Notes under the pieces: model-generated
What the model was told of the DNA's origin: nothing
Seen by the model: only the letters and a program-made list of their open reading frames with translations
Databases searched by the model: none
Source: Gaiellales bacterium
GTDB taxonomy: Bacteria > Actinomycetota > Thermoleophilia > Gaiellales > Gaiellaceae
DNA: 64,000 bases
Reading direction: 5' to 3'
NCBI GenBank assembly: GCA_046330455.1
Contig: JAXLSU010000006.1
Coordinates: forward strand, 73,601 to 137,600
Translations under genes and position numbers: made by a program
Shown here: piece by piece, positions 38,372 to 53,757 of the stretch
Layout: every line of letters starts with the position of its first letter
Numbering within the stretch: the first letter of the stretch is position 1

Positions 38372-38803
38372 CTACCCGGCCCGGGTGCGGTACTCGTCGG
38401 GGTGGTGACGGCCGTGGTAGGAGATCACCGTGACGAGCAGTCCGACGAGCGCGATTCCGGGGCCGACCGAGAGGCCGAGCAGCTCCTCCCGGGTGTACGG
38501 GGCATCGAGAGCCAGGGCGCCGACCGCGACCCAGACGCCGGCGGCGATTGCGGGGAGCAGCAGGAGGATCACCTGCCAGTCGTGCCACGGCCGGTTCCGT
38601 CGTCGCCACAGCACGTAGTCCCAGAGCGCGAACGCGATCACGGTTGTGCCAGGCACCGGGCCGAGCACGACCCGCTCGAGCGTCGAGACGTCGGTCCAGA
38701 CGAGCGGCGCGATCGCGACCCAGAGCCCGGCGAGCAGGATCGGCGGGGTCGCGAACGAGGGGAGAACCGATCTACCGGGCTCTCGAGAACCGGTGGACGG
38801 CAT
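38372..38803 (-). CDS. membrane protein, hypothetical (start uncertain)
   Basis: Four hydrophobic helices. ATG 38803 is the only internal canonical start and overlaps the csoR 3' end by 32 nt. Confidence 0.5.
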   Translation of the reverse strand: MPSTGSREPGRSVLPSFATPPILLAGLWVAIAPLVWTDVSTLERVVLGPVPGTTVIAFALWDYVLWRRRNRPWHDWQVILLLLPAIAAGVWVAVGALALDAPYTREELLGLSVGPGIALVGLLVTVISYHGRHHPDEYRTRAG

Positions 38804-39062
38804 CGAGGAGCTCTCTGCTCTTCGCGTGCGCGACGTCGGGGTCGCCGGACTCGAGGGCGCCGGCGACGCAGTGGTTGACATGGTCGTCGAGGATCCGGAA
38901 GGCGAGGCTCTCGAGCGCCGTCGTCACCGCCGAGATCTGGGTGAGGATGTCGATGCAGTAGCGGTCCTCGTCCACCATGCGCTCGATCCCGCGCACCTGT
39001 CCCTCGATCCGGTGCAGGCGGTTGACGAGCGCATCCTTGTCCTGGGTGTAGCCATGGGTCAT
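38772..39062 (-). CDS. csoR: CsoR-family copper-sensing transcriptional repressor
   Basis: …[34 protein letters not shown]…DHVNHC… carries the Cys-His-Cys ligand pattern. ATGA overlap with the copA stop. Confidence 0.9.
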
Positions 39063-41239
39063 GCCCGCACGCTCCTGAATCGGCGCAGCCTGAGTGAGTT
39101 CGAGACGACGAAGAGGCTCGAAAACGCCATCGCGGCGGCGGCCACGATCGGGTTGAGGAGCCCGGCGACGGCCAGCGGGATCGCGGCGACGTTGTAGGCG
39201 AAGGCCCAGAAGAGGTTGCCCTTGATCGTCGCGAGCACGCGGCGGGAGAGCCGGATCGAGTCGACGGCCGCCCGCAGGTCTCCCGAGACGAGCGTGAGGT
39301 CGGACGCCTCGATCGCGACGTCGGTGCCGGTGCCGATCGAGATCCCGAGGTCGGCCTGGGCGAGCGCCGGTGCGTCGTTGATCCCGTCGCCGACCATCGC
39401 CACCACGCGGCCCGCGTCCTGGAGGCGCCGGACCTCGGCGACCTTGCCGTCGGGGAGCACCTCGGCGATCACCTGAGCGATGCCGACCTCGCCGGCTACA
39501 CGCCGGGCCGTCTGCTCGTTGTCGCCGGTCAGCAGGACCGGCGTGAGCCCGAGGCCTGTCAGCTCGCGGATCGCCTCGGCGCTCGTCGGCTTCACGGTGT
39601 CATGCACCGTCAGCGTCGCGCGCGGCTCGTCGTCCCAGGACACGGTGATCGAGCCGTCTCGCCGGGCGACCTCGACCCGGTGTCCCTCGACCACTCCCTG
39701 GACGCCGATGCCCGGGAGGTTCCGGAACTCGGCAACAGGCGGCAGCGCCGTGAGCTCGGCCCGTGCAGCCGCTGCGACGGCCTGTGCGACCGGGTGCTCG
39801 CTCGCCGCCTCCACGGCTCCCGCGAGGCGCAGCACGTCGGTGCGTGAGGCGCCGTCGAGGAGGCTGACGGCGGCGAGCTCCATCCGTCCCTCGGTCACCG
39901 TGCCGGTCTTGTCGAGCACGATCGTGTCCACGCTGCGTGTCTGCTCGAGGATCTCGGGGCCGCGGATCACGATCCCGAGCTGCGCGCCGCGACCCGTGCC
40001 GACCATCAGCGCGGTCGGCGTGGCGAGGCCGAGCGCGCACGGGCAGGCGATCACGAGCACGGAGACGGCGGCGGCGAACGCGAACGTCGGCTCGGCCCCC
40101 GTGGCGAGCCAGAACCCGAGCGTGCCGAGCGCGACGACGATCACGACCGGCACGAAGACGGCCGAGACCCGGTCGGCGAGGCGCTGCACCGGCGCCTTCC
40201 CGCCCTGGGCCTCGGCAACGAGCCGCGCGATCTGCGCGAGGGCCGTCTCCGCGCCGACGCGGGTCGCCCGGACGACGAGCAGGCCGTACGTGTTGATGGT
40301 GGCGCCGGCGACCTCCGAGCCCGGCTCCACCTCGACCGGCAGGGGCTCGCCGGTCAGCATCGCCTGGTCGATCGCGGACACCCCGTCCTCGACGACGCCG
40401 TCGGTCGCGAGCTTCTCGCCCGGCCGGACGACGAACCGGTCGCCGACCCGGAGCTCCTCGATCGGAACGAGCACCTCCTCGTTGCCGCGGAGCACCCGGG
40501 CCTCCTTCGCGCCGAGCTCGAGCAGCGCCCGCAGCTCCGCGCCGGCACGGCGCTTCGCACGGGCCTCCAGGTAGCGGCCGAGGAGGATCAGGGTCGTGAC
40601 GGCGGCGGCGACCTCGAGATAGATCTCCGTCTCGGCGCCGGCGGTGTCGAACGTGAGCTCGAACGTCATGCGCATCCCCGGCTCGCCGGCGCCGAGGACG
40701 AACAGGGCGACGACCGACCAGGCCCAGGCGGCGAGCGAGCCGAGCGAGATCAGCGTGTCCATCGTAGCGGCCCGGTGGCGAAGGTTCAGCAATGCGGCGC
40801 GGTGGAACGGCCAGCCGCCCCAGAGCACGACGACGCTCGCAAGCTGGAGCGAGAGCCACTGCCAGTAGTCGAACTGCAGCGCCGGCACCATCGAGAGAAG
40901 GACGACCGGAACCGACATGGCGGCCGAGACGAGCAGGCGGACCCGCAGCTCGCGGAGCGGGTCGGCGGTGGCTGCAGCCTCCTGCGGCTTCTCCTCGTGG
41001 GGAAGCGTCGCGTGGTATCCGGTCTGCTCGACGGCCTCGACGAGCGTCTCCGGATCGGCCTGCCCGGGGTCGTACTCGACGGTCGCCGTCTCGGTCGCGT
41101 AGTTCACCTGCGCGCTGACGCCGGGCAGCCGGTTGAGCTTCCGCTCGATCCGCACCGCACACGATGCGCACGTCATCCCCTCGATCGGGAGCTGGAGGTG
41201 CTCGAGCTCCCGTGGTGCCTGTGGCGCCGTCGTACTCAT
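39059..41239 (-). CDS. copA: copper-translocating P1B-type ATPase
   Basis: ATG 41239 overlaps the copZ stop. N-terminal HMA domain GMTCASC, plus CPC ([12 protein letters not shown]), [13 protein letters not shown] and a TGE-like loop. Confidence 0.9.
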
Positions 41240-41439
41240 TCCACGTCGTAGCCGGCCGCGTCGATGGCGGCACGGATCGCTGCGTCGTCGAGCCCCGACC
41301 CGCTGACGGTCACGAGCTTTGCCTCGAGGTCGACCGCAACCGATTCGACGCCGGCGACCGCGCCGACCTCGGAGGTGACGGCCGCGCGGCAGTGCTCGCA
41401 CGACAGCCCCGGAACGCGATAGGTGAGCGTCTCAGCCAT
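41236..41439 (-). CDS. copZ: copper chaperone, HMA domain
   Basis: [25 protein letters not shown]… carries the CxxC metal site. 67 aa. Confidence 0.85.
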
Positions 41440-41445
41440 GTGTCC

Positions 41446-41474
41446 ATCATACCCTAATGGGGTATGAAGAACAA
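41446..41474 (-). promoter_or_regulatory. copZA-csoR promoter TTGTTC-17 nt-TATGAT; geometry predicts a leaderless transcript
   Basis: On the minus strand, TTGTTC is at 41474..41469 and TATGAT at 41451..41446. Only 6 nt (GGACAC) separate the -10 box from the copZ ATG at 41439. Confidence 0.5.
41449..41465. promoter_or_regulatory. candidate CsoR operator ATACCC-TAATG-GGGTAT
   Basis: The inverted repeat spans the -35/-10 spacer. It resembles the TACCC…GGGTA pseudo-palindromes reported for CsoR operators (recollection, not searched). Confidence 0.6.
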
Positions 41475-41496
41475 GGGCTCTCTGCGGGCCGAGTCC

Positions 41497-43257
41497 TCAG
41501 GCGTCGTCGTCGGCGTTCCCGTTCCCGCCTTCGGAGCCCGCCGGCGGCCCGTACTCGACGATCGTGTGCTCGGGGTCGTACCGGACCGTGAAGTGCTCGT
41601 CGCGGCGGACCTCGCCGTTGCGATACACCGTGCGCGTGTACTCGACCGTGAAGCCGGAGACGCCGCCGCTCTGCACGACCTTCTCGGTCCCGGGGGGCAG
41701 CGACGGGTTGTACTCCCTGATCGTCGTCGCCGCCGTGTACGCGTAGGGCTCGCCCGTCTCCGTCTCGACCCGCCGTCCGAGCTTCGAGGAGTAGAAGCGG
41801 ACCGTCACCGACGTGTCGCCCGCCTCGACCTTGACGAGAATCCCCGCGGGCCAGTCATTGCGGAAGATCAGCTCGGGGCCGCCCCAGGAGACCGTCGCCT
41901 CGCGACCCATCGGATACCGCGAGATGTAGAACTGGTGCGGGGTGTGGGCGATCAGCTCGAGCCCGGCGAAGAACGCGGCGTTGTACACGGTCGTCGCGAT
42001 CTGGCTGACCCCGCCGCCGATCGCGTCCTCGAGCCGTCCGGCCGTGATCATCGGCGCCGCGACGAAGCCCCGCGCTGCCGTCCGCTCGCCGAGCCGCTGG
42101 TTGAGCGAGAAGCGCCCTCCCGCGACGATGAGCTGGCCGTCGAGGATCTCGGCCGCCCGCTGGATGTTCGTGACCCGCGGCTGGCAGCACGAGTACGGCG
42201 TCGTGAACTCGGCCACGAGGCGCCGGATTCCCATCCCCTTTGCCTCCCTGGTCGTCAGCTCGGGCTCCGTGTGATCGAAGCGGGCGCGCACGGCCCGCGC
42301 GCCGACGCGCTCCATGATCTCGGCCGTCACGCGGTCGGGGGCGAGCGCACGCCCGTCGCGGGAGGGGACGACGACGGCACGCTCGCCCTTCACCCTGAAG
42401 GTCGCATCGACCGGCTCGCGCTCGAACGCGCCGAAGGCCTCCTGCAGAGGCGCCTCGAACGGCTCGCTGTCGAGGCGGACCCGGATCGCACCCTTCCGGG
42501 CGCGAAACCTCAGCGCCTCGGCGATCAGCGTCCGGTCGAGCTCGAGCCGCTCGGCGCGATACACGACGTCGGGAGGGGCAGCGAGCAGGGTCTCCGCGAC
42601 GAGACGGGCCGCGTCCGCCGCCTCGTCGTCCACCTTCGGCGGGACCTCCCGCAGCTCGAGCTCGACCCGGGCCGGCAGCGTCGCGAGGTCGGCGGCGGCG
42701 GCTTCCGCGTCCAGCTCGGCACCCGGAGCCGAGGGGGTAGCGACCACCTGGTCACCCTCGATGGTGACCTTCGCCGAGACGGGCCGGCGGTCGACCTCGG
42801 AGGCGACTCGCTCGAGCGTCCCGGCGAGCCGCTCCTCGTCGACCGTGTAGACGAGCGCGAAGGTGAGTGAATCGGCCAGGCCGAGCCGTGCTCCGAGACG
42901 GTCGAGCCCTCCACGGCTCCGCTGTGCCTCGGCGAGGACCTCGTCGAGGTTCGTGTGAACGCCGAGCTCCTCGCCGGAGGTCGTCAGCTCGCCGCCCGGG
43001 TAGGCGAGCACGATCGGCCGTGACGCCGTGCGCTCGACCTGACCGGACACCGATGCGCGGGCCTCCTCGATGGTGAGACCGCCCACATCGATGCCCTCGA
43101 TGACGATTCCGGGCGGCAACGTCCCGCTCTCGGAGCGCGCGAGCCAGGCGCCGCAGCCGGCGAGCGCTCCGACGACGACGGCGAGCACGAGGGCCGCGAC
43201 CCGCCAGCGCCTGCGACCGGGCGGGCGGCCGTACACGGTGAAGCGGGGGGCGGCCAC
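41497..43257 (-). CDS. VanW-family protein with N-terminal membrane anchor and C-terminal G5-like segment
   Basis: TM anchor WRVAALVLAVVVGALAG. The VanW core is …RVTNIQRAAEILDGQLIVAGGRFSLNQRLGERTAARGF…GGGVSQIATTVYNAAFFAGL…. The C-terminus reads …TEKVVQSGGVSGFTVEYTRTVYRNGEV…. Confidence 0.8.
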   Translation of the reverse strand: MAAPRFTVYGRPPGRRRWRVAALVLAVVVGALAGCGAWLARSESGTLPPGIVIEGIDVGGLTIEEARASVSGQVERTASRPIVLAYPGGELTTSGEELGVHTNLDEVLAEAQRSRGGLDRLGARLGLADSLTFALVYTVDEERLAGTLERVASEVDRRPVSAKVTIEGDQVVATPSAPGAELDAEAAAADLATLPARVELELREVPPKVDDEAADAARLVAETLLAAPPDVVYRAERLELDRTLIAEALRFRARKGAIRVRLDSEPFEAPLQEAFGAFEREPVDATFRVKGERAVVVPSRDGRALAPDRVTAEIMERVGARAVRARFDHTEPELTTREAKGMGIRRLVAEFTTPYSCCQPRVTNIQRAAEILDGQLIVAGGRFSLNQRLGERTAARGFVAAPMITAGRLEDAIGGGVSQIATTVYNAAFFAGLELIAHTPHQFYISRYPMGREATVSWGGPELIFRNDWPAGILVKVEAGDTSVTVRFYSSKLGRRVETETGEPYAYTAATTIREYNPSLPPGTEKVVQSGGVSGFTVEYTRTVYRNGEVRRDEHFTVRYDPEHTIVEYGPPAGSEGGNGNADDDA

Positions 43258-43295
43258 TACCCGGAAGGGTAGGTGCCGGGGTCAGCCGGCCGCGG

Positions 43296-46200
43296 TCAGA
43301 TCCGGCGCTCGCCGGCGACGCGCTTGACCTCGTCGAGCGAGGTCAGACCCTCGATGCAGAGGCGAAGACCGTCGTCCTGAAGGGTTCGCATCCCGTCCGT
43401 CACGGCGACCTCGTAGATCTCTTCGGCGGTTGCCGTCTCCATCAGCCGGCGCATCTTCGGGGTGACGAGCATCGTCTCGAACAGCCCGATCCGCCCCTTG
43501 TACCCGCCGGTGCACTGCCCGCAGCCACGCGGCTTGAAAAGCGTCACGGGCCCGCTCACGGGCAGGACGCGCTCGTCGGCCCCTGCCTTCAGCAGCAGGC
43601 CGGGATCGAGCGGGAACGCCTCGCGGCAGTTCGTGCACAGCTTGCGTGCCAGGCGCTGCGCGAGGATGACGTTGATCGTCGAGGCGAGCAGCTGCCGCTC
43701 GACCCCCATGTCCGTCATTCGCGAGACGGCGGACCCGACGTTGTCGGCGTGGAGCGTCGAGAGCACGAGGTGGCCCGTCATTGCCGCCTGCACCGCGATC
43801 TTCGCGGTCTCGGAGTCGCGGATCTCGCCGACGAGGAGGACGTCGGGATCCGAGCGCAGGATCGTGCGGAGGCCGTGGGCGAACGTGAGGCCCGCCTTGA
43901 CGTTCACCTGCACCTGGTTGAGACCCTCGAGCTGGTACTCGACCGGATCCTCGATCGTCATCACGCAGCGATCCTCGGTATTGAGGAGGCGGAGCGCCGA
44001 GTAGAGCGTCGTCGTCTTGCCGCTGCCCGTCGGGCCCACCGAGAGCAGCGCGCCGTAGGGCTGCGCGATCGCGTGGCAGATAGCGGCCTCGGTGTCCGCT
44101 GCGAGCCCGAGGTCTGCGAGATCGGCCGCGCTGGACGAGCGGTAGAGGACGCGAATCACGATCTGCTCGCCGTACAGCGTCGGAAGGACGGCGATCCGCA
44201 GGTCGACCGGACGCCCGCCGAACGTGATCGTGACGCGGCCGTCCTGAGGTGCGCGACGCTCGGCGATGTCGAGCTCGCCCATGATCTTCAGCCGGGCCGA
44301 CACGGCCTGCTGCAGGCGGGCCGGGATGATCCGGACCTCGCGCATGACGCCGTCGATACGGGCCCGAACGAGCATACGCTCGCTCTGCGGCTCGAAGTGG
44401 ACGTCGGAGGCGCCTTCCTGGATCGCGTGCTTGATGACCTCGTTCACGAGCTCGATCGCGGGCGCGTTGGTCGTCGCCTCGAGCACCTCGACAGGGCCCT
44501 GCCTGCGGAACCCGCTCGGCGTCTCGTGATCGGCAGCCTCCGGCTCCTCGGTCTCCATCGTGGTGGGGATCGTGGTCGCTCCCTCGGGATGGACCCGGTC
44601 GAGCGTCGCGTCGATGTCGCTTCCGAGCGCGACCGCGAGCTGGATCTGGACGCCGAGGACGAGCCGGAGATCGTCGGAGGCGAGCACGTCGGTCGGGTCA
44701 GCCACTGCGACGAGGAGAGTGCCCCCCTCGAGGTAGCGGACGGGAACGGCCCGGTAGCGACGGGCGTACTTCGCGGGCAGCAGCGAGGCGACCGCGACGT
44801 TCGGCGGAGCCGCGGCGATGTCCAGGTAGTCGAGGTCGTGCTGCTCTGCGAGCGCCGTGGCCAGACCCTGCTCGGAGAGGGCGCCGGTCTGCACGAGGAT
44901 CCGGCCGAGCCGCTCGCCGCTCTCCTCTTTCTCCTCGAGGCCCGCGGCCACCTGCTCGGGCGTCACGAGGCCCTGGCGGAGCAGGATCGTGCCGAGCTGC
45001 GGCCGGCGATGCTCGAAGAGCGGAACGATCGCCGCCGACTCGACCTCGGCCGGCTCCTCCACGTCTGCGACCGGGAAGAGCGAGGTCTCGATCGCCTCGA
45101 GGGCCGGCGCGGCCGGCTCGGCCGCTGCCTCGTCGTCCTGCTCGCGGTCCGGAGCCTCCCCGGCGACCGGCTCCGTCGTGGTGGACGGAGGTGCGTCGTC
45201 GTCCTGCCCGTCTGTGCTCCACCCGGGCCCGGCCGCCTCGGGCTCCGTCTCGTCGGGCTCGGCCGCCTCGGGCTCCGTCGCCTCGGGCTCGACGGCCTCG
45301 GGCTCGGCCGGATCGGGCCGTACTTCCTCGGGCTCGACGGCGTCGGAGTCGACCGCCCCGAGCTCGACCGGATCGGGCTCTACTTCGTCGGGCTCGGGCT
45401 CCGTCGCCTCGGGCTCGACGGCCTCGGGCGCTGCCGCTTCGGGCTCGGGCTCCGTCTCCTCGGGCTCCAGGTCCGGCTCGGCCCGCGCCTCGGGGTCCGG
45501 CTGTGGCGTCGCGGGCTCGGGCTCGTCGGCGTCCCCTTCGGGCTCCACGAGCTCCTCGGTGGGCGGGACGGCCGGCCAGACGATCGCGGGCGTCCAGGCC
45601 TCGACGTGGGGGCTCCCGGTCGGAGACCAGAGTACGGGCTCGACCGGGGGCTGCTGGGCGCTCGTCGGAAGCCAGAGGTCGGAGGGGGAGGGCGGGAAGG
45701 GGTCTGGATCGGGCCCGTGCGTCAAGTCGGGCGGGGCCGGCACGTCGGCCGGCGGGGCGCCGATCACGCGAAGCAGCGGCACGCCCGCCACGGGCTCGAC
45801 CGTCGAGAGGTCGAGCGCGCTCGGAGCGGGCCCGGTGGAGAATCCGTGCCCGCCGGACGGGTCGGGTCGCGCCGGCACAGGATCCTCGACCGGTACAAGG
45901 AGGTCGTCGACGTCCGGCTCGGACGGCTCGATCAGCTCGCCGCGCAGCGCTGCGGGGATCTCGACGATAGCGACGAGCTCCTCGGTCGCTCCGTCACCCG
46001 GTGCTGCGATGGCCTCGTCGGACGTCTCGGTCTCCGCGCCGGCAGGCTCCGGCCCGGGCAGCGTGACCACGATCGACGCCAGGTGACCTGGCTCGGTGAG
46101 GCCCGCGCCGGCGGTCGAGGCCTCGACCGCCACCTCCGCTTCGGCGTCCGGCTCCGCCGTTGCGGGCTCGACCTCGTCAGGGGTCTCGGCGGGCTCTGTG

Positions 46201-46730
46201 GTCGCCTCCGGGGCCTGTACGTGTGGGACGGCCAGCGGATCGGGCTCCTCGGGAGGCGAAAGGGCGTTCTCGGTGGGCAGCGTGGGGTCGAGCCTGGCAA
46301 GAGCTGCCTTGATCTCGGAATCGGTCGCCACCGCAAGGCCCACATCGAGACCGATCGCGCTACGAAGGTCGTCGATCGCGACGCTCGTGGGATCGGAGAC
46401 GGCGACGAGCACGGTGTCGTCGTTGACGAACCGGACGGGAACGGCCCGAAAGTAGGCGCCGACCCGGCTCGAGAGCAGCGACTCGACCCGCGGCTCGGAA
46501 GGCGTGGTGGCGAGACTGATGAAGGGCAGGTCGGACTGGTCGGCCAGCAGCTTGGCAACCTGGGCTTCGGTCACCCAGCCGCGTCTGACGACGATCTCGC
46601 CCAACCGCTCGCCGGTCTGCTCCTTCTCCTCGAGTGCCTCGGCGAGCCTGTCGGCGGACAGCAGGCCGCTGCGGAGCAGCAACGCTCCGATCCGAAGGCG
46701 ACGATGCCGGTAGGCCGCAGCCGCTTCCAT
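43296..46730 (-). CDS. GspE/PilB-type (T2SS/T4P) secretion ATPase with duplicated MshEN-like N-domains and a long Pro/Glu/Ala-rich spacer (1144 aa)
   Basis: ATG 46730 (MEAAAAYRHRRLRIGALLL…). MshEN-like domains sit at residues ~10-145 and ~575-710. Walker A is GPTGSGKTT and the Asp box is VMTIEDPVE. Walker B/His box is LLVGEIRD…TGHLVLSTLH, with a tetra-Cys cluster (CTNC…CGQC). The 251 codons upstream in the listed ORF are antisense to the Pit gene. Confidence 0.85.
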   Translation of the reverse strand: MEAAAAYRHRRLRIGALLLRSGLLSADRLAEALEEKEQTGERLGEIVVRRGWVTEAQVAKLLADQSDLPFISLATTPSEPRVESLLSSRVGAYFRAVPVRFVNDDTVLVAVSDPTSVAIDDLRSAIGLDVGLAVATDSEIKAALARLDPTLPTENALSPPEEPDPLAVPHVQAPEATTEPAETPDEVEPATAEPDAEAEVAVEASTAGAGLTEPGHLASIVVTLPGPEPAGAETETSDEAIAAPGDGATEELVAIVEIPAALRGELIEPSEPDVDDLLVPVEDPVPARPDPSGGHGFSTGPAPSALDLSTVEPVAGVPLLRVIGAPPADVPAPPDLTHGPDPDPFPPSPSDLWLPTSAQQPPVEPVLWSPTGSPHVEAWTPAIVWPAVPPTEELVEPEGDADEPEPATPQPDPEARAEPDLEPEETEPEPEAAAPEAVEPEATEPEPDEVEPDPVELGAVDSDAVEPEEVRPDPAEPEAVEPEATEPEAAEPDETEPEAAGPGWSTDGQDDDAPPSTTTEPVAGEAPDREQDDEAAAEPAAPALEAIETSLFPVADVEEPAEVESAAIVPLFEHRRPQLGTILLRQGLVTPEQVAAGLEEKEESGERLGRILVQTGALSEQGLATALAEQHDLDYLDIAAAPPNVAVASLLPAKYARRYRAVPVRYLEGGTLLVAVADPTDVLASDDLRLVLGVQIQLAVALGSDIDATLDRVHPEGATTIPTTMETEEPEAADHETPSGFRRQGPVEVLEATTNAPAIELVNEVIKHAIQEGASDVHFEPQSERMLVRARIDGVMREVRIIPARLQQAVSARLKIMGELDIAERRAPQDGRVTITFGGRPVDLRIAVLPTLYGEQIVIRVLYRSSSAADLADLGLAADTEAAICHAIAQPYGALLSVGPTGSGKTTTLYSALRLLNTEDRCVMTIEDPVEYQLEGLNQVQVNVKAGLTFAHGLRTILRSDPDVLLVGEIRDSETAKIAVQAAMTGHLVLSTLHADNVGSAVSRMTDMGVERQLLASTINVILAQRLARKLCTNCREAFPLDPGLLLKAGADERVLPVSGPVTLFKPRGCGQCTGGYKGRIGLFETMLVTPKMRRLMETATAEEIYEVAVTDGMRTLQDDGLRLCIEGLTSLDEVKRVAGERRI

Positions 46731-46807
46731 ACGCGCCCTGTATCGGCAGAACGGGGGATCTTCTTGACCCGTCCGGGGGTGGGCGCGAGCCCCCGCCGGC
46801 CGAACGG

Positions 46808-47956
46808 TCAGACGCCCGTCGAGACGGTCGCGGGCGCCGGCGGGGCCTGCGTCTCGGCCGCGGGCTTCGCCGGCGCATGCATGAGCCGGGAGCGGGCGAT
46901 GAACGCGAGCAGCGCGATCGCGACCCCGATCGCGAACACGATCGCCGGGCCCACGCCGCCCGGGATCCGCGTGATGACCTCGAGCAGCCCGCCCACGAGC
47001 GCCGCACACGGGATCGTGAGCAGCCACGCGGTCACGATGTTGCCCGCGACGCCCCAGCGCACGGCGTGGAGGCCGCGCGTCGCGCCGGCGCCGAGCACCG
47101 AGCCGGAGATCGTGTGGGTCGTCGAGACGGGGAAGCCGAAATGCGCCGTGAGGTAGAGCGTGATGCTCGTGGCCGCTTCGGCGGCGAAGCCCTGGGGCGG
47201 CGAGATCTTGGCGATGCGCTGCCCGAGCGTCCGGATGATCCGCCAGCCACCGGCGTACGTTCCGAGCGCGATCGCGGTGGCGGCGGTGACGATCACCCAG
47301 ATCGGTGGGCGCGAGAAGTCCTCGTCGAGCCGCCCGGAGGCGACGAGCGCCAGTGCGATGATCCCCATCGTCTTCTGGGCGTCGTTCGTTCCGTGCGTGA
47401 ATGCGAGCAGGCTCGACGAGAAGAGCTGCATCCGCCGGAACGCGAAGTTCACCCGTTTCGGCGAGCGCCTGCGCACGATCCACAGGAACGCGACCATGAG
47501 CGCCGCGGCCCCCGCCATCCCGAGGAACGGTGCGGCGAGCGAGGGGATCAGCACCTTCTGCACGAGCCCGTCCCCGAAGACGGCGCCGAAGCCGTTGGCG
47601 GCGATTGCCGCGCCCATCGTGCCGCCGATCAGCGCGTGGCTCGAGCTCGATGGGAGCCCGAGATACCAGGTGATCAGGTTCCAGGAGGTCGCGCCGATCA
47701 GGCCTGCCAGGAGGATCGGCAGCGTGATCACCGAGGGGTCGACGATCCCCTTTGCGATCGTCGCCGCCACCGCGAAGGACGTGAAGGCGCCGGCGAAGTT
47801 GAGCACCGCGGCGAGGATCACGGCGACCCGCGGATGGAGCGCTCTCGTCGAGATCGCCGTCGCGATCGCGTTGGCCGCGTCGTGGAAGCCGTTCGTGAAG
47901 TCGAAGAAGAGCGCGACGACGACGACCGCGATCAGCAGGAGGATGCTGTCGTCCAC
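46808..47956 (-). CDS. pit: inorganic phosphate transporter, PiT (PHO4) family
   Basis: …FFDFTNGFHDAANAIAT… and …FTHGTNDAQKTMG… are the duplicated PiT signatures. Confidence 0.9.
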   Translation of the reverse strand: MDDSILLLIAVVVVALFFDFTNGFHDAANAIATAISTRALHPRVAVILAAVLNFAGAFTSFAVAATIAKGIVDPSVITLPILLAGLIGATSWNLITWYLGLPSSSSHALIGGTMGAAIAANGFGAVFGDGLVQKVLIPSLAAPFLGMAGAAALMVAFLWIVRRRSPKRVNFAFRRMQLFSSSLLAFTHGTNDAQKTMGIIALALVASGRLDEDFSRPPIWVIVTAATAIALGTYAGGWRIIRTLGQRIAKISPPQGFAAEAATSITLYLTAHFGFPVSTTHTISGSVLGAGATRGLHAVRWGVAGNIVTAWLLTIPCAALVGGLLEVITRIPGGVGPAIVFAIGVAIALLAFIARSRLMHAPAKPAAETQAPPAPATVSTGV

Positions 47957-47960
47957 CGAC

Positions 47961-48581
47961 CTACGTGCTCTTGACGACGATGTTGCCGAGGACGCTCCCG
48001 ACGGCCTGGGCGGAGTTGATCGCCGCCTCGAGACCCTCGTGGATGTCCTTCCAGCGGATCACCATCAGCGGATCGATCCGGGAGTCGTCGAAGAGATCGG
48101 CGAGCGCGTTGCGAACGACGCGGTCGCCCTCGTCCTCCTCGTACTGGAGCTGGTCGATCACGGCCTCGAGGGTGCTCTGCCCCTTCAGGTCGGCGAGGCC
48201 GAGCGCGAGTTGCTCACACGCGCGAACGAGGATCGCGCACTGCTCGATCGCGGCCCTGCTCGGAAGCTCGACCGAGTAGAGGCTCAGCAGCTCGGTCGCG
48301 TGGTAGATGTGGTCGACGACGTTGTCGAGCCGGCCCGCGAGCTCGTAGATGTCCTCCCGGTCGAACGGGGTCACGTACTGGGTGTTGAGGAGCTGGATGA
48401 TCTCCTTCGTGAGGTCGTCGCCGCGGTGCTCGAGATCGTTGATGTCGTCCTGGGTCGTCGACGGATTCGGCCACTCCCGGAACCTCGTCTCGGCCTTCCG
48501 GGCGACCTCGAGCGCGTTCTCGCCGGCCTTTGCGAAGAGCTCGTAGAACCCGCTGGACTTCGGAACCAGGCTCAACCGCAC
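47961..48581 (-). CDS. DUF47 (PhoU-like) Pit accessory protein
   Basis: GTG 48581 gives VRLSLVPKSSGFYELFAKAGEN…, the usual DUF47 N-terminus. It lies 4 nt upstream of pit. The longer listed start (48656) would abut the repeat boxes. Confidence 0.8.
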   Translation of the reverse strand: MRLSLVPKSSGFYELFAKAGENALEVARKAETRFREWPNPSTTQDDINDLEHRGDDLTKEIIQLLNTQYVTPFDREDIYELAGRLDNVVDHIYHATELLSLYSVELPSRAAIEQCAILVRACEQLALGLADLKGQSTLEAVIDQLQYEEDEGDRVVRNALADLFDDSRIDPLMVIRWKDIHEGLEAAINSAQAVGSVLGNIVVKST

Positions 48582-48665
48582 CGCATCCCCGCCCCCCCTG
48601 TCTGGCGCCCGCATCGCCGGGCGCATCCCTACCCTTCGAAGGTAGGCGAAGATCACGTAGGTGTG

Positions 48666-48698
48666 TGGTATCGCTCTGGTTACAGAGTGGTAACGATC
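48666..48698 (-). promoter_or_regulatory. three 11-nt-phased direct repeats (TGGTATCGCTC / TGGTTACAGAG / TGGTAACGATC); Pho-box-like response-regulator site
   Basis: Read on the gene strand, the cores are GTTACCA / GTAACCA / GATACCA at exact 11-nt spacing, 85-117 nt upstream of the DUF47-pit start. See finding. Confidence 0.5.
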
Positions 48699-48879
48699 GT
48701 GGGCCCATCAGCGGGTCGGAGCCGATCGCGGCCCCCCGGAGGACCCGCACCAGCCGTGCGCGTCGGCGGGTTGGGCGGGCATCCGGCCCTCCCTGCGGGA
48801 CCGAGCGTGACCGCCGGGCTTCGCCCGGCTCTTGCGCGGGTCCGGCCCGGCCGGGCCGGGCCGTCAGCCGCGTGGGCCG

Positions 48880-49527
48880 TCAGCTGCGGGCGACCAGCCG
48901 CTCGATGAGAGCGGCGTCGAGGCGCTCGACGACCTCGTCTGCTTCGGCGAGCAGGCCGGCCGGCTGCGAGCCGAGCACCGCGATGCAGCGCAGCCCGGCG
49001 GTCTTGGCCGCCGCGATCCCGACAGCCGTGTCCTCGAAGGCGAGCATCCGACAGGGCTCGACGCCGAGCCGCCCGGCCGCGACCAGGTAGGCCTCGGGGT
49101 CCGGTTTGGGGCGGGTCACGTCCTCGAGCGCCACGACCGTGGCGAGGAGCGTCGCGAGCCCCGCCCCGCGGAGGATGCCGTCGACCTCGACCCGGAACGC
49201 TCCCGACACGACGGCGACCGGTAACGTCTCCGCCGCCTTCCGGACGGCGTCACGCGTGTGCGCGGGCACGGTGCGCCCGTCGGCGGCGAGGTGCAGGAAG
49301 CGCTCGATCCGCTCGGCCAGGAGCTCGTCGATCCGCGCGAAGTCGTCTCCGAGCCAGCGCCGGACGAGCGCCGGGTCGGCGTTGCCGACGAGTTCCTGGA
49401 AGTACTCGCGACGGGTGACCGGCCTGCCTTCGCGCTCGAACAGCTCGGCGAAGATCTCGAAGTAGAGCTCCTCGTCGTGGGAGAGCGTGCCGTTCAGGTC
49501 GAACGCGATCGCGCGGAGCGTGCTCAG
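48880..49527 (-). CDS. HAD-superfamily hydrolase (phosphatase / beta-phosphoglucomutase-like); start codon unresolved
   Basis: …AIAFDLNGTL… (DxD motif I), plus …VVSGA… and …FEDT..G… motifs. There is no ATG/GTG/TTG between the phoU stop and motif I. The CTG at 49527 overlaps the phoU stop (CTGA). Confidence 0.7.
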   Translation of the reverse strand: MSTLRAIAFDLNGTLSHDEELYFEIFAELFEREGRPVTRREYFQELVGNADPALVRRWLGDDFARIDELLAERIERFLHLAADGRTVPAHTRDAVRKAAETLPVAVVSGAFRVEVDGILRGAGLATLLATVVALEDVTRPKPDPEAYLVAAGRLGVEPCRMLAFEDTAVGIAAAKTAGLRCIAVLGSQPAGLLAEADEVVERLDAALIERLVARS

Positions 49528-50216
49528 CGATCCCCGCCGGGGTGCGATGCGTCCTCGAACTCCTGGAAGTCCCCGGAGACGAGGTAGGCGGTCTGCTCGC
49601 CGATGTCCACGGCGTTGTCGCCGATCCGCTCGAGACAGCGCGAGACGATGATCATGAGGAGCGCCCACTCCCGCATCGTCGCATCGCCTTCGAGGCGGGC
49701 GAGCTGCTGCACGACGCGGCGGTTCGAGTTGTCGATCAGCTCGTCGAGGGCGACGAGGCTCTTCGCGGCCTCGAGGTCACGCCGGAACAGGGAGTCGAGC
49801 GCGATCCGCGTCATCTCCTCGGCCCGCGAGCCCATCTCCTCGAAGCCGTCGATCACGACCTCGCTCTCGGGGGAGATGACGCGCTTCACCTTGCCGAGCT
49901 TCGCGATGTTGACGCAGAGGTCGGCCATCCGCTCGAGGTGGTGGTTGACGTGCAGCGTGGCGAGGACGAGGCGAAGCTCGGTGGCGGCCGGCGTCTGCCG
50001 GGCGAGGATCTGCTCGACGAGCTGCTCGACGCGCTGCGAGCGGTCGTCGACCTCGTCGTCGAAGGCGATCACCTCGTCGGCAAGCTCCGCATCGCCGGTC
50101 CGCAGCGCGTTGAGCGCGCCCCGAAGCGCGCGCAGGACGTACTCACCCTCCTCCTGGAGCGTCGCCTCCAGCTGGTCGAGCTCCTCCTGTCGTTCGATCC
50201 GCGTCGGTTGGCGCAT
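49524..50216 (-). CDS. phoU: phosphate signalling complex protein PhoU
   Basis: Two PhoU repeats (…HLERMADLCVNIAK… and …CLERIGDNAVDIGE…). ATG 50216. Confidence 0.9.
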   Translation of the reverse strand: MRQPTRIERQEELDQLEATLQEEGEYVLRALRGALNALRTGDAELADEVIAFDDEVDDRSQRVEQLVEQILARQTPAATELRLVLATLHVNHHLERMADLCVNIAKLGKVKRVISPESEVVIDGFEEMGSRAEEMTRIALDSLFRRDLEAAKSLVALDELIDNSNRRVVQQLARLEGDATMREWALLMIIVSRCLERIGDNAVDIGEQTAYLVSGDFQEFEDASHPGGDR

Positions 50217-50258
50217 CGTCGTCCTCGACCGCCATCTTGACACGTATCGGGTGCGAGC

Positions 50259-51224
50259 CTAGGCGCCCGGGAGCAGGCAGCGGATCGTCAGCCCTTCCCC
50301 CCGGGCGCCGACCGCCTCGACCGAGCCGCCGGCCTGCGTCACGATGTGCTTGACGATCGCGAGCCCGAGGCCCGTACCGCGCGAGGCGCGGGCCCGGTCT
50401 GTCCGGTAGAAGCGCTCGAAGAGGCGCGGGAGGTCTGGCCCGGAGACACCGACCCCGGTGTCCGACCCGGCGAGCACGACACGGTCGCCCTCCCGCGAGA
50501 TCGACAGCGTCAGGGCCGCGCCCGGGCCCGCGTAGCGGATCGCGTTCTGGAGCAGGTTCTCGCCGATCACCCGGAGCATCCGGGGTCGCAGCGGGACATC
50601 GATCGATTCGTCACCCTCGACCGAGACCTTCATTCCCGCGCGAGCGGCACGCTCCGCGTGCTCCTCGACGAGCTGCCGGAGAATCGGCATCGCCCGCGTC
50701 TGGCCGAGCCCGACGACCTCCCGGCCGGTCTCGAGCTCCGAGAGAAAGAGCACGTCGTCGATCAGCTCGCGGATCTGCTCGACCTCTGCCCGCGCCTGCT
50801 CGACGACCTCGCCCGGGTCCGAGCCCGGAAGCGCGGCGCCCTCGAGGATCGCGAGCAGCCGGGCGAGGGGAGTGCGGAGCTCGTGCGAGACGGCGGCGGT
50901 GAACCCGGCACGGAGCTCCTCGTACGCCGCGAGCTGGCCCGGCTCGATCAGGTAGAGGAGCGTCTCACGCCGCCCGGCCGCCTCGTAGCCGACCGTGAAG
51001 GGCGTGCGACGGTCGCCCGGAGCGAGCAGTCGCTCGGGGACGAGCTCACCCTCGCGGAGACCTTCGAGCTGCTCGCGCGCGCGCCGGCTCGCGGCCACGA
51101 CGCGCTGCTCCGCGTCGAGCACGATCACGAGCTCGCGGCTCTCCTCGATCAGCGCCCGCCCCCGCGCGGCCTCGAGCACGACGTCGCCGCCTGCGCTCTC
51201 GGTCCGACCGGGCTCCCGCTTCAT
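50259..51224 (-). CDS. soluble PAS-domain sensor histidine kinase (SenX3/PhoR-like)
   Basis: No TM segment. H-box SHELRTPL, N-box LLQNAIRY, and G-boxes DTGVGV and GTGLGLAIV. Confidence 0.85.
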   Translation of the reverse strand: MKREPGRTESAGGDVVLEAARGRALIEESRELVIVLDAEQRVVAASRRAREQLEGLREGELVPERLLAPGDRRTPFTVGYEAAGRRETLLYLIEPGQLAAYEELRAGFTAAVSHELRTPLARLLAILEGAALPGSDPGEVVEQARAEVEQIRELIDDVLFLSELETGREVVGLGQTRAMPILRQLVEEHAERAARAGMKVSVEGDESIDVPLRPRMLRVIGENLLQNAIRYAGPGAALTLSISREGDRVVLAGSDTGVGVSGPDLPRLFERFYRTDRARASRGTGLGLAIVKHIVTQAGGSVEAVGARGEGLTIRCLLPGA

Positions 51225-51238
51225 ACTGCGCCTGGCAG

Positions 51239-51934
51239 ATGTCGCGGGTGCTCATCATCGAGGACGACGAGGTGATCGCGCAGGGGATGGCGCGGCATCT
51301 GCAGGCGGCAGGGTTCGATCCGTTGTGGGTGGCGAAGGGCGAGGCTGGTCTGGCGCGGTTGCGATTCGAGCGGCCGGATGTGTGCGTGCTGGATCTGATG
51401 TTGCCAGGGATCGACGGGTGGAGCGTGATCGAGACGGTGCGCCAGGAGGGGATCGGGACGCCGATCGTCGTCGTGTCGGCACGGGGGACAGAGCACGATC
51501 GGGTGCATGCGCTGGAGATCGGCGCGGACGACTATCTCGTCAAGCCGTTCTCCATGAAGGAGCTCGTGGCCCGGGTGAGGGCTGCGGCGCGCCGGGGGGT
51601 ACGGGCGCAGGAGGGAACTCGGGGTGAGCCTGTCCGGGTGGAGGAGTTGCTCGTCGATCCACGCAACGTGCAGGCGTTCGTGGACGGGGTCTCGTGTGAG
51701 CTGACGCCGACGGAGTTCCGGCTGCTCTACGCGCTCGCGCTCGAGCAGGGTCGGGTCGTCACCCGCGACGAGCTGCTCCAGCGCGTCTGGGGCCGGCGGG
51801 CCACCCACCGGGATCGCACCGTCGACGTCTTCGTGCGCCGTCTGCGCGACAAGGTCGACCGCCGGGCGACCGCGCACAGCTTCATCCAGACCCGCTACGG
51901 GGTCGGCTACAAGCTCGAAGCGCTCCCGAAGTAG
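51239..51934 (+). CDS. OmpR/PhoB-family response regulator (RegX3/PhoP-like)
   Basis: Receiver domain (…LIIEDDE…VLDLMLPGIDG…KPF…) plus a winged-helix domain (…LTPTEFRLL…RTVDVFVRRLRDK…GVGYKL). Confidence 0.9.
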   Translation: MSRVLIIEDDEVIAQGMARHLQAAGFDPLWVAKGEAGLARLRFERPDVCVLDLMLPGIDGWSVIETVRQEGIGTPIVVVSARGTEHDRVHALEIGADDYLVKPFSMKELVARVRAAARRGVRAQEGTRGEPVRVEELLVDPRNVQAFVDGVSCELTPTEFRLLYALALEQGRVVTRDELLQRVWGRRATHRDRTVDVFVRRLRDKVDRRATAHSFIQTRYGVGYKLEALPK

Positions 51935-51971: not shown

Positions 51972-53500
51972 ATATGGGAGTGGTTTTGTCAACGGTCCAG
52001 GCCGCGTCACCCCCGGGGTGGGGGTGAGTGGCTGCTCGGGTGGGCGTCGGGCGCGGCGGCGACGGTGGCTTGCGGTCAGTCTCACGATGCGGGGGTTGGT
52101 TACCCCAGTGCCCTGGTTGCGTCGCCGGGCGTGCGCTGTCTACGAGCGGGCGTGGCCGCTGGGGCTGCCCATAGGGGCATCGCGCGTGCCTGGCGGCTTT
52201 GGCCCGGCGCCCGCCCGAGCAGGCGGCGGTGTTGTCGGGGTCATTCGGCCACGGCGGCGGCCCAGAGGAAGCAGGCGAGCTCGCGGGCGGCGGCGATGGT
52301 GGCGACGTTGGCGGGCTTGCCGCGGGCGCGCAGGCGCGCGTGGAGGCGGTAGAGGCGGTGCTGGGCGCGCCAGGCGATCCGGAGCACCTGGGCCGGCTGG
52401 TCGTGCTGGCGGGCGGCGAGCGCCGCCCCGACCGCGGGCTGGCGCAGGTAGTGCCAGGCGGCCTCGACAAGCAGACGGCGGGCGTAGCCGGAGCCGGTCT
52501 TGGTGATCGCTCCCTCGACTCTGCGCTCCCCGGACTGGTCGAGCGCGGGCACGAGCCCAAGCCAGGAAGCGAGCCGGGAGGGCCGCGGGAAACGGTGGAA
52601 GTCACCGATCTCGAGCGTGAGCGCGAAGGCGCTCAGCGTGTCGATGCCGCGAAAGCAGCGCAGCCGCGCCACCGTCGACCGCCACTCGCCCTCGACGGCA
52701 AGCCGGGAGAGACGCTCATCGAGCGCCTGCCTGCGCGCCACCAGCCCCTCAACGGCAGCGAGCGCGTCGAGGTAGGCAAGCTCGGCAGCCGGCTCTTCGA
52801 AGCGCTGGCGGCTGAGCCAGTCACGGTGGCGCTGTGTCCAGGTGTTCGGGTGCGGGTAGAGCCGCCCGTGCAGAAGCAACAGCTTCGAGACCCGATGGCG
52901 AGAGCGCATCAGGTCAAAGCGCACCTGCTCCCGGGCCCGGCAGAGATGACGGGCCGCCTCGTAGCTCGCGCTCGGCACAGCCACAAACGCAAGCTGCCCA
53001 GCCAAGAGCAGCCGCGCAAGCAGCTCAGCGTCCTTGCGATCGGTCTTGACCCGACCGCCCGGCGCCCGCGGCGTCTTCGACGGCGCCACCACCTCAACGC
53101 GCACACCCGCGGCCTCAGCCGCCCGAAACAGCGAAAACCCGGTCGGCCCGGCCTCATAACAAGCCCGCACCGGCCCAGGCAACGTCCCCAGCCACCCGAC
53201 CACCTCCTCACAGCCAGCGCCGAACCGAGCCCGGCGCAACTCACCGCTCACCACATCGACCGCCGCCGCATGCGTCGAGCGAGCATGCACATCCAGCCCC
53301 ACGTACGTCATCGTTGCCACCACGGCCGGACCCTCCTTTCGGTGCACGGGGACAGCCGGAGCCCGTCCCCGGCCAGACAACCCCCGGAACTGCCACCAGA
53401 GGGTCCGGCCCAGACCGGACAACGGCCAATCCGCATAGGGTCTACAGGGTGCGAAAGGACGAAAGAGCGCGCGGCAAGCCGAAACCCCCGCCCTGGGCAG
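51972..53500 (-). mobile_element. IS110-family insertion sequence (boundaries approximate)
   Basis: One DEDD-type transposase gene is flanked by ~265 nt (3') and ~180 nt (5') of non-coding sequence. No obvious terminal inverted repeats, as expected for IS110. It sits between a REP-like hairpin and tRNA-Ser. Confidence 0.6.
52241..53323 (-). CDS. IS110-family transposase (DEDD recombinase)
   Basis: …TYVGLDVHARS…CYEAGPTGF…KTDRKDAELLARL…FRGIDTLSAFALTLEIGDFHRF…LASWLGLVP…SG…ITKTGSGYARRLLVEAAW…. GTG 53323 lies 7 nt after GGAGGG; the alternative is ATG 53311. Confidence 0.85.
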   Translation of the reverse strand: MVATMTYVGLDVHARSTHAAAVDVVSGELRRARFGAGCEEVVGWLGTLPGPVRACYEAGPTGFSLFRAAEAAGVRVEVVAPSKTPRAPGGRVKTDRKDAELLARLLLAGQLAFVAVPSASYEAARHLCRAREQVRFDLMRSRHRVSKLLLLHGRLYPHPNTWTQRHRDWLSRQRFEEPAAELAYLDALAAVEGLVARRQALDERLSRLAVEGEWRSTVARLRCFRGIDTLSAFALTLEIGDFHRFPRPSRLASWLGLVPALDQSGERRVEGAITKTGSGYARRLLVEAAWHYLRQPAVGAALAARQHDQPAQVLRIAWRAQHRLYRLHARLRARGKPANVATIAAARELACFLWAAAVAE

Positions 53501-53518
53501 GGACCTCGGCTCGGGAAG

Positions 53519-53607
53519 CGGAGGGGGGGAGATTTGAACTCCCGAGGGACGGAACCGCCCCTAACGGTTTTCGAGACCGCCGCATTCGACCGCTCTGCCA
53601 CCCCTCC
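53519..53607 (-). tRNA. tRNA-Ser (anticodon CGA)
   Basis: The reverse complement is GGAGGGGTGGCAGAGCGGTCGAATGCGGCGGTCTCGAAAACCGT…GGGAGTTCAAATCTCCCCCCCTCCG. It has a long variable arm. CCA is not encoded. Confidence 0.9.
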
Positions 53608-53666
53608 GGGGCGCGCCCATCCTAGCTGCCCGCCCGGGGCGAGAAGGGAGCCAGGGAGCGACGGAG

Positions 53667-53757
53667 CGGAGAAGGAGGGATTCGAACCCTCGAGGCAGGG
53701 AATCCCCCACCTAACGCCTTAGCAGGGCGCCGCCTTCAGCCACTCGGCCACTTCTCC
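53667..53757 (-). tRNA. tRNA-Ser (anticodon GCT)
   Basis: The reverse complement is GGAGAAGTGGCCGAGTGGCTGAAGGCGGCGCCCTGCTAAGGCGT…GAGGGTTCGAATCCCTCCTTCTCCG. It has a long variable arm. Confidence 0.9.

Follow-up and report, generated by a model that had tools for sequence, protein, structure and literature searches.

Two MshEN domains flanking a polyanionic disordered spacer in a PilB-type ATPase encoded apart from pilus genes

Introduction

What might an ATPase of the PilB type, equipped with two predicted receptor domains for cyclic di-GMP (c-di-GMP), be doing in a neighborhood of phosphate and cell-wall genes where genes for a pilus were not found? The question is raised by a contig of a Gaiellales bacterium (JAXLSU010000006.1), of which a stretch of 64,000 nucleotides (64 kb; GC content 70.7%) was analyzed; the term 'window' is used throughout for that whole stretch. 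One of its genes encodes a protein in which a first MshEN domain (MshEN1), a very long acidic spacer, a second MshEN domain (MshEN2) and a PilB/GspE-type ATPase core follow one another. The gene had been singled out in an earlier, 'sequence-only' reading of the same DNA, which took its architecture to be undescribed.

The interpretation favored here, to which we give an even chance of being correct, is that the product is a stand-alone c-di-GMP receptor-ATPase (that is, a signaling or recruiting hexamer) rather than the dedicated motor of a pilus operon. Three observations lead to it: the gene keeps its place in a Pho-regulon and cell-wall neighborhood; it was never found near pilus genes, whether in the 64 kb of the window or in the flanking 10 kb on both sides in relatives; and its positional orthologues from sister lineages have lost catalysis but remain under selection, with MshEN1 their most constrained part.

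Two predicted c-di-GMP receptor domains on one polypeptide

Both N-terminal domains are members of the MshEN family, with motifs that are predicted from their sequence to be competent for binding. The Pfam model for MshEN (PF05157) matches two stretches (E 5e-32, the best of them at residues 631-715), as does the MshE-type NCBIfam model NF053729 ('c-di-GMP_motif'), with 105 bits against a cutoff of 38. A regular expression built on the published MshEN consensus, a tandem 24-residue motif with a 5-residue gap that reads RLGxx(L/V/I)(L/V/I)xxG(L/V/I)(L/V/I)xxxxLxxxLxxQ (Wang 2016, PMC5013675), locates four such 24-residue motifs, with five residues between the members of each pair. All four diagnostic glycines are present in each domain (G15, G22, G44 and G51 in the first; G580, G587, G609 and G616 in the second). 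The departures from the consensus are few: motif I ends in Lys instead of Gln in both copies and begins with Gln instead of Arg in the second, and motif II of the first copy has Val at one of the Leu positions.

An AlphaFold2 (AF2) model, calculated from a 25-sequence alignment of the family, contains three confident modules (residues 12-155, 575-717 and 756-1140), mostly with predicted local distance difference test (pLDDT) values of 85-97. Within the first of these, helices at residues 14-20, 26-39, 43-49 and 55-65 are followed by β/α elements, and the same pattern returns at residues 579-713 with a pLDDT of about 90. Pattern search, profile models and structure prediction thus agree with the sequence-only reading that two MshEN copies, each with the tandem motif and a gap of five residues (EQTGE and EESGE), are present. 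The two copies share 46% of 147 aligned residues, a level consistent with an internal duplication. The motif pair of MshEN1 is largely invariant across nine family members, and that of MshEN2 is kept in the orthologues P0002 to P0005 and P0014.

When MshEN1 was searched by sequence against the PDB, the best match was Thermus PilF (6f8l, E 2.5e-34), accompanied by 5htl (VcMshEN) and 8pdk; it aligns with the GSPII-A, -B and -C domains of PilF, and best with GSPII-B, which is the high-affinity c-di-GMP binder. The N-terminal domains also match the NCBIfam models of the NfrB and PRK15489 glycosyltransferases across their MshEN part.

A PilB-class motor core

The C-terminal part of the protein is a T2SSE-class ATPase in both sequence and fold. 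The Pfam T2SSE model (PF00437) covers residues 752-1137 (E 2e-127; 425 bits, cutoff 24.9), and the Walker A motif, Asp box (IEDPVEYQ), Walker B motif, His box and tetra-cysteine motif are all canonical. Three of the four cysteines (C1032, C1035 and C1070) are invariant in 25 of the 25 aligned sequences, and C1073 is nearly so. In Foldseek comparisons to the PDB, the core falls on Geobacter PilB (5tsh and 6olj) with target-normalized TM scores of 0.83-0.85, a root-mean-square deviation of 3.7-4.0 Å and 45% identity, and further matches are found to Thermus PilF and to GspE. As judged by its motifs and predicted fold, the motor would be catalytically competent, and the sequence-only description of a standard assembly ATPase, of the kind found in type II secretion systems (T2SS) and type IV pili, was therefore sound.

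Such a core invites the most serious of the alternative explanations, which we regard as a genuine contender that probably does not hold: the protein might be the ordinary extension motor of a type IVa pilus, a competence pilus or a T2SS-like machine, its partners encoded elsewhere, with c-di-GMP sensed at two tiers and the spacer a tolerated linker. Beyond the canonical catalytic and zinc motifs and the PilB fold, this explanation is favored by the full-length NCBIfam comparison, in which the top model is that of PilB (TIGR02538; 601.8 bits, with positions 2-562 of the 564 in the model aligned to residues 579-1139). However, that score lies below the model's equivalog cutoff of 675.65, and the GspE model (TIGR02533) likewise gives 525.4 bits, under its cutoff of 630.25. 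Selection on the core also speaks for an ordinary motor. When the window gene is compared to that of its orthologue P0002, the ratio of nonsynonymous to synonymous substitution rates (dN/dS, by the method of Nei and Gojobori) is 0.10 for the ATPase, 0.16 for MshEN1, 0.15 for MshEN2 and 0.70 for the spacer, values that are approximate because dS is near saturation and is constrained by the GC content of third codon positions (GC3).

Relation to described ATPases and receptors

Duplication of the sensor is itself already known, and in this respect the window protein is a variant. Thermus PilF has three consecutive GSPII/MshEN domains (residues 6-150, 164-300 and 304-476) that differ from each other in c-di-GMP affinity and in function, and a 2024 paper states that reports of multi-GSPII ATPases of its type are confined to Deinococcus-Thermus (PMC11731258); the PilB protein of D. 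geothermalis has a 'middle' MshEN domain (PMC5013675). Thermus thermophilus PilF (6f8l, 6ejf and 8pdk) and the window protein share a PilB-class core, Walker A and B motifs, the tetra-cysteine motif and at least two N-terminal MshEN/GSPII domains ahead of the ATPase. In contrast, the domains of PilF abut one another with short linkers, whereas the two copies in the window protein stand some 420 disordered polyanionic residues apart, and are thus neither consecutive nor arranged as a compact N-terminal disc. PilF acts together with PilMNO in a pilus and competence machine, where GSPII-C is needed for stimulation by PilMN (PMC6325625), whereas the window gene is without such genes nearby. That a multi-GSPII PilF works in real pili (PMC11731258, PMC6325625) counts in favor of an ordinary motor; an ATPase-dead orthologue of PilF did not turn up in the literature searched.

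The other precedents are single-sensor proteins or are built around a different output. Vibrio cholerae MshE (MshEN domain, 5htl) shares the tandem motif with its 5-residue gap, the four glycines and the order of a four-helix MshEN_N subdomain, an α/β MshEN_C subdomain and a GspE/PilB ATPase (PMC5013675). The window copies differ in motif I at the positions noted above (Lys at the end in both, Gln at the start in the second), and MshE carries a single sensor and is encoded in the msh pilus operon, whereas the window protein has two sensors, a giant tether and no operon partners. The PilB of Myxococcus xanthus acts as a signaling protein for exopolysaccharide, and for it and the PilB of Chloracidobacterium thermophilum, both with an MshEN N-terminal domain, the nucleotide state has been proposed to signal exopolysaccharide production besides pilus assembly (PMC5544727, PMC6957770). 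Those proteins have a single sensor, lie in pil clusters and are true pilus motors, whereas a signaling role for the window protein is suggested only by its context and its dead orthologues. Finally, MshEN is a portable c-di-GMP input module outside pili, fused to the E. coli glycosyltransferase NfrB and to REC, HD-GYP and CheA modules (PMC5013675, PMC8669469); unlike those fusions, the window protein retains a PilB-type ATPase as its output domain (in relatives a pseudo-ATPase) and has no glycosyltransferase or signaling enzyme in that place.

The sequence-only claim that the architecture is not a described one therefore fails for the duplicated sensor, which PilF and Deinococcus PilB already display, and stands for the long tether and the orphan position. 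A full-text literature search gave no match for sensors separated by a polyanionic disordered tether of several hundred residues, nor for a conserved location outside pilus loci or for pseudo-ATPase orthologues, and the small family to which the protein belongs is apparently undescribed.

Orthologues that have lost catalysis

The intact full-length form is rare: among 1.84 billion representatives it occurs in just two clusters at 50% identity (P0001 and P0005), and the score drops from 1013 bits to 634 bits at the next match, which is a generic PilB. Positional orthologues could be sorted into three clades. Clade A comprises the window protein and P0002 to P0006, all with canonical catalytic motifs, one of which (P0006) has three MshEN copies. 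In clade B (P0007, P0008 and P0011) the two MshEN domains are adjacent, and are followed by an acidic disordered region of 320-393 residues with a net charge of -94 to -109. The Walker A motif of this clade reads GPREGG[TA]TTT, in which the lysine is lost; its Asp box has become EDPIAVP and its Walker B motif DPDxVLVGDLAD, and both histidines of the His box are gone. In clade C (P0014, P0023 and P0025) the Walker A lysine is replaced by arginine (GPAxSGRTTT), there is no Asp box, the Walker B motif is degenerate, acidic low-complexity sequence stands in place of the N2 domain, and MshEN2 is eroding. The tetra-cysteine motif, ATPase-dead relatives included, and a nearly invariant MshEN1 are kept in all three clades.

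The degenerate forms are maintained. Within clade C, dN/dS between P0014 and P0023 is 0.125 for MshEN1, 0.25 for the pseudo-ATPase C-terminal domain and 0.43 for MshEN2. At the loci of the dead orthologues the ATPase domain is 42-50% identical to that of the window protein, and the flanking genes mostly 53-77%; the ATPase domain has therefore diverged faster. Taken together, these figures show that they are maintained proteins and not pseudogenes. In lineages where the positional orthologues are dead yet selected, they cannot serve as motors, and it is the preservation of MshEN1 and of the tetra-cysteine core after the loss of catalysis that leads us to rank the receptor-ATPase above the ordinary motor with remote partners.

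A second orphan PilB-like locus, found in related contigs between dtd/rimP-nusA-infB and coaBC-rpoZ-gmk-mihF-pyr, displays comparable forms. The gene arrangement around it is typically actinobacterial, and the family is probably actinobacterial as well. Gene content (SenX3/RegX3, MMPL, VanW-G5 and PPK2 in the window and in its syntenic relatives, mihF-gmk-rpoZ-coaBC at the second locus) likewise suggests Actinomycetota, a placement of low confidence. In two of these contigs (P0009/L083, 4998-7109; L068, 9394-11049) the gene is intact and PilB-like with a single MshEN domain; in another (P0024/L065, 10001-12769) it encodes two MshEN domains, an acidic disordered region and a dead Walker A motif (GPVGSGTTTT), a form that is shared by P0016 to P0018. 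Single-domain orthologues in ordinary pil clusters, which the sequence-only reading had named as evidence that would count against it, were not encountered: the nearest relatives of that kind (P0009/L083 and L068) are orphans too, in a housekeeping context, which also speaks against an ordinary motor. The long polyanionic disordered region recurs across paralogous families.

Wider searches added little to this family. A genome scan with the full protein, for which the search patterns were partly of low complexity, returned generic PilBs of other phyla (no more than 43% identical across most of the sequence) and no orthologue; the matches in Armatimonadota, Bacillota and Verrucomicrobiota span about 2.8-3.3 kb, which is consistent with multi-domain PilBs. 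A metagenome scan with the MshEN1 alignment, whose patterns were unspecific, gave at least 16 loci, with L067 and L068 the useful ones among the matches listed, and a homologue search with MshEN1 alone gave only short fragments, together with a partial PilB (48% identity to MshEN1) from one Gaiellaceae (Thermoleophilia) metagenome-assembled genome, a weak hint at the taxon.

Two peculiarities of the collected sequences may be recorded here. Tails rich in Arg and Ser that look out of frame occur at the C-terminus of P0011 (L062) and in P0172, P0173 and P0179, all from ENA long-read assemblies; they are probably assembly frameshifts, and the 'stand-alone MshEN' proteins of 180-240 residues in the same long-read set are therefore not to be trusted. 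In addition, P0026 and P0029 to P0036, which are about 1000 residues long and were top-ranked among PilB representatives, match the query ATPase in their N-terminal half and possess a second matched stretch.

Genomic context

The gene occupies a fixed place in a run of genes on the same strand, in the order SenX3-like kinase, PhoU, PhoU_div, Pit, the gene itself, a PG_binding_4-VanW-G5 protein, a copper P-type ATPase, a hypothetical protein of 183 residues and an M19 dipeptidase. Pfam confirms both of the immediate neighbors that had been named from the sequence, a Pit transporter upstream (beyond a gap of 77 nucleotides, 46731-46807) and a VanW protein 38 nucleotides downstream. The VanW domain was recently identified as a peptidoglycan L,D-transpeptidase family (PMC11348318). 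The order regX3/senX3, pstSCAB, phoU, (PhoU_div-Pit) and gene is conserved in five loci from independent samples (L060, L062, L063, L064 and L066); VanW and M19 follow the gene in three of the five, and VanW adjoins the ATPase in four of six contexts.

No gene for T2SSF/PilC, PilM, PilN or PilO, a pilin, a prepilin peptidase, PilT or a secretin was found by Pfam among the called open reading frames (ORFs) of the whole window, nor did the 10 kb on either side show any pilus gene in the same five relative loci, as the sequence-only reading had proposed for the immediate surroundings. This counts against an ordinary motor, with the qualification that pilus genes are often scattered over genomes.

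Several points weigh against the stand-alone receptor-ATPase. The motor of the window protein is fully canonical and strongly selected, like that of an ordinary pilus extension ATPase, and the approximate nature of the dN/dS values applies to each comparison made with them. The search for pilus genes covered the window and, in relatives, the flanking 10 kb on both sides, and such genes could lie elsewhere in the genome. Neither a diguanylate cyclase nor a phosphodiesterase was found in the window. The shared order with Pho and VanW genes may simply have persisted by inertia within one lineage (VanW is missing beside P0005 and P0002), and the dead orthologues could represent a secondary exaptation after the loss of pili that is uninformative on the intact clade. 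Lastly, c-di-GMP binding, the hexamer and ATPase activity are predictions from motifs and models.

The polyanionic spacer

The spacer has an extreme composition. Between residues 151 and 572 (422 residues) it consists of 20% Pro, 17% Glu, 16% Ala and 8% Asp, without a single Lys, and carries a net charge of -101; this composition and the AF2 model both uphold the earlier description of an acidic, Pro-rich spacer of about 400 residues. A hidden folded domain within it was considered and rejected, as AF2 shows none and the Pfam matches are sub-threshold noise.

The spacer may alternatively have no function of its own: slippage in a high-GC genome could have enlarged low-complexity sequence neutrally, as an accident of one lineage, an explanation that we think unlikely. 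Its dN/dS of 0.65-0.70 and amino acid identity of 37-38% fit such an expansion (P0002, 68% identical to the window protein overall, is 37% identical here), as do its varying length (281-413 residues among clade A orthologues), the imperfect tandem array of 15-nucleotide units within it and the lack of AF2 structure. However, a polyanionic disordered region of 200-413 residues is present in every family member, whatever its place in the protein, and the same extreme composition, with a net charge of -45 to -109 and almost no Lys or Arg, is found in every member of the three clades and at the second paralogous locus; drift would not be expected to hold it there, nor to keep a reading frame open for more than 1.2 kb in all assemblies. 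The spacer also contains one conserved element, which speaks against neutrality, the string AGVPLLRVIG with its core PLLRV(I/V) (z = 9.6 compared to shuffled spacers). It is the sole 10-residue string of the spacer that is clearly conserved across clades; related strings (PDAPLLRVVG, EVSLLRVAE, PLPSLRIVA, GEPLLRVVS, GEPLLRLSV and FPTL(R/H)IV) occur in all ten other members, most strongly in P0002, P0014 and P0025.

Integrity of the reading frame

The gene is real and under selection, and is not an artefact. It starts with ATG at 46730 and stops with TGA at 43296-43298 on the minus strand; the coordinates given in the sequence-only reading were exact, and the strand, which that reading had omitted, can now be added. 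Long spurious ORFs are common at 70.7% GC, and codon-position GC was therefore checked: GC3 in frame is 0.80-0.96 in each 50-codon block of the ORF, spacer included. The N-terminus of all orthologues is MEAA..., the equivalent of 46730, which led to the rejection of a longer candidate, an ORF of 1395 residues from a GTG at 47483 that overlaps the Pit gene out of frame. That a mis-assembly or frameshift has fused two separate genes, one for a small MshEN protein and one for a PilB, or that the ORF is a decaying pseudogene, is scarcely credible and effectively refuted, since against the spurious long ORFs of high-GC DNA (one of 1135 residues lies on the opposite strand here) and the frameshifted tails of some long-read relatives (such as the P0011 C-terminus) stand the continuous in-frame GC3 periodicity, purifying selection on all three folded modules, an independent JGI metagenome contig (P0001) whose 1144-residue protein is the same except for four substitutions (three within the spacer), and at least five diverged orthologues from different samples with the same fused architecture (P0002 to P0005 at 56-68% identity, each a single ORF with a spacer of 281-365 residues). 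The frameshift or assembly artefact that the sequence-only reading had allowed for is thus not borne out.

Regulatory signals were not apparent. A scan of positions 41000-49500 for promoters and terminators gave no signal above shuffled expectation, and an Rfam scan of the window found three tRNAs only and no c-di-GMP riboswitch. The GC-rich intergenic region between the Pit gene and the ATPase gene was considered as an attenuator or terminator and rejected, its folding being no better than that of shuffled sequences (z = 0.21).

Table 1. Positions in the window of the ATPase gene, its encoded parts and its two immediate neighbors (residue numbers refer to the 1144-residue protein)
Feature	Position	Strand	Basis
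Dual-MshEN PilB-like ATPase, complete coding sequence (1144 aa + stop)	43296..46730	-	In-frame GC3; orthologue starts; P0001 of the same length
MshEN1 (residues 12-155), tethered extra sensor	46266..46697	-	Pfam; NF053729; AF2 pLDDT ~90-96; dN/dS 0.16
Predicted c-di-GMP motif pair of MshEN1 (13-36, 42-65; gap EQTGE)	46536..46694	-	Regular expression
Polyanionic Pro-rich disordered spacer (residues 156-574, 419 aa as modeled)	45009..46265	-	AF2 pLDDT 29-40, no secondary structure
Conserved short motif AGVPLLRVIG in the spacer (residues 315-324)	45759..45788	-	Comparison to shuffled spacers (z = 9.6)
Imperfect 15-nt tandem array coding for EPEAx-like pentapeptides	45224..45448	-	Tandem Repeats Finder: 14.6 copies, 66% matches
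MshEN2 (residues 575-717), canonical N1D position	44580..45008	-	Pfam; TIGR02538 start at 579; AF2 pLDDT ~90; dN/dS 0.15
Predicted c-di-GMP motif pair of MshEN2 (578-601, 607-630; gap EESGE)	44841..44999	-	Regular expression
Short disordered linker between MshEN2 and N2 domain (718-755, 38 residues)	44466..44579	-	AF2 pLDDT <50
PilB/GspE-type ATPase core, N2D + CTD (C-terminal domain; residues 756-1144)	43299..44465	-	Pfam T2SSE; Foldseek; dN/dS 0.10
Walker A GPTGSGKTTT (residues 899-908)	44007..44036	-	
Walker B DPDVLLVGEIRD (961-972) and His box TGHLVLSTLHA (985-995)	43746..43850	-	
Tetra-cysteine (Zn) motif C1032, C1035, C1070, C1073	43512..43637	-	25-sequence alignment
Upstream Pit/PHO4 phosphate transporter (start approximate)	46808..47902	-	Pfam PHO4 E 4e-94; synteny with L060, L062, L066
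Downstream PG_binding_4-VanW-G5 protein (38-nt gap)	41497..43257	-	Pfam; also adjacent in L062, L064, L066

Other features of the neighborhood

The SenX3-like kinase gene of the window (50262-51251) has phoU (49527-50258) as its immediate downstream neighbor, at a site where pstSCAB lies between the two in L060, L062, L064 and L066; pstSCAB seems to have been lost or relocated from this site in the window genome. The hypothetical protein of 183 residues (38375-38923, minus strand), for which Pfam gives no match, is 62-76% identical in the same four relatives, and adjoins the M19 dipeptidase in three of the four (L062, L064 and L066). A PPK2 polyphosphate kinase (36060-36887, plus strand), a fragment of which is present in L062 too, and a methylmalonyl-CoA mutase (33542-35182, plus strand) lie near the Pho/Pit cluster, a setting that hints at a phosphate and polyphosphate theme. 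A large PAS-GAF neighbor in L060, considered as a diguanylate cyclase, was rejected because its domains are PAS-GAF-SpoIIE phosphatase/HATPase_c_2.

Farther out, an IS110-family transposase (DEDD_Tnp_IS110 and Transposase_20) lies directly beside two tRNA-Ser genes (53518-53607, cga; 53666-53757, gct), all within 52244-53757, and this site, at the edge of the Pho cluster, may be a hotspot for insertions. A protein of 979 residues with SWM_repeat and Big_5 Ig-like domains (28625-31561, plus strand), likely at the surface or secreted, precedes an S11 D-Ala-D-Ala carboxypeptidase (31601-32599, plus strand). Three consecutive ORFs for TrkH-family cation transporters (60445-61986, 61952-63511 and 63492 to the window end, together 60445-63998, plus strand) represent split genes or else a tandem triplication, which would be unusual.

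A possible mode of action

In the predicted structure, MshEN2 is at the canonical site about 40 residues ahead of the motor, and MshEN1 is at the end of a tether of about 420 residues. Each protomer might then bind two c-di-GMP molecules, with sensors that may differ in affinity and output, by analogy to Thermus PilF. On the receptor-ATPase interpretation, the occupancy of these sites would determine the choice of partner by the presumed hexamer and not the turnover of ATP; c-di-GMP does not necessarily alter the ATPase rate (PMC11656802). MshEN2, in the N1D position, would couple the state of its ligand to the core or to a partner. MshEN1 would serve as a remote second receptor or recruitment module, which the tether, by setting its reach and by electrostatic exclusion, might allow to contact a distant partner or might keep away from it, and the PLLRV(I/V) motif is a candidate docking site. 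The ATPase of the window clade has kept its catalytic motifs and is strongly selected, so the output there is probably still driven by ATP. Only synteny points to a link with phosphate homeostasis or with the VanW L,D-transpeptidase.

A broader and more tentative proposal, which may well be wrong as a whole, would extend this scheme to the family: a set of PilB-derived c-di-GMP receptors, probably of Thermoleophilia-like Actinomycetota, that has departed from the pilus machinery. One or more MshEN domains would be 'fly-cast' on a polyanionic tether from a hexameric core that retains the tetra-cysteine motif, with ATP hydrolysis optional and lost independently at least twice among the positional orthologues; the second, paralogous orphan locus (dtd/nusA-pyr) would follow the same trend. 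The motor would thereby have been turned into a signaling scaffold, possibly one that ties c-di-GMP to phosphate homeostasis or to peptidoglycan cross-linking of the VanW type.

Implications

Only two c-di-GMP receptor modules are truly widespread. MshEN is one of them, and how binding to its N-terminal domain is coupled to output is still unclear even in model PilB proteins (PMC11656802). If the window protein is an ordinary pilus motor, the finding shrinks to a curious expansion of a linker; the features of the family lift it above that, the function itself being one that we infer. The family represents a natural dissection, in which one sensor is uncoupled from the motor by about 420 disordered residues and is kept the most conserved part while the ATPase of sister lineages dies, a pattern that would show that the output of the sensor need not pass through ATP turnover. 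It also offers a clean bacterial case of a disordered region with conserved charge and composition, unconserved sequence and one embedded short linear motif. For an uncultured and probably actinobacterial lineage, in which the searches made here found no described receptor of the MshEN type, the protein would add a receptor for c-di-GMP.

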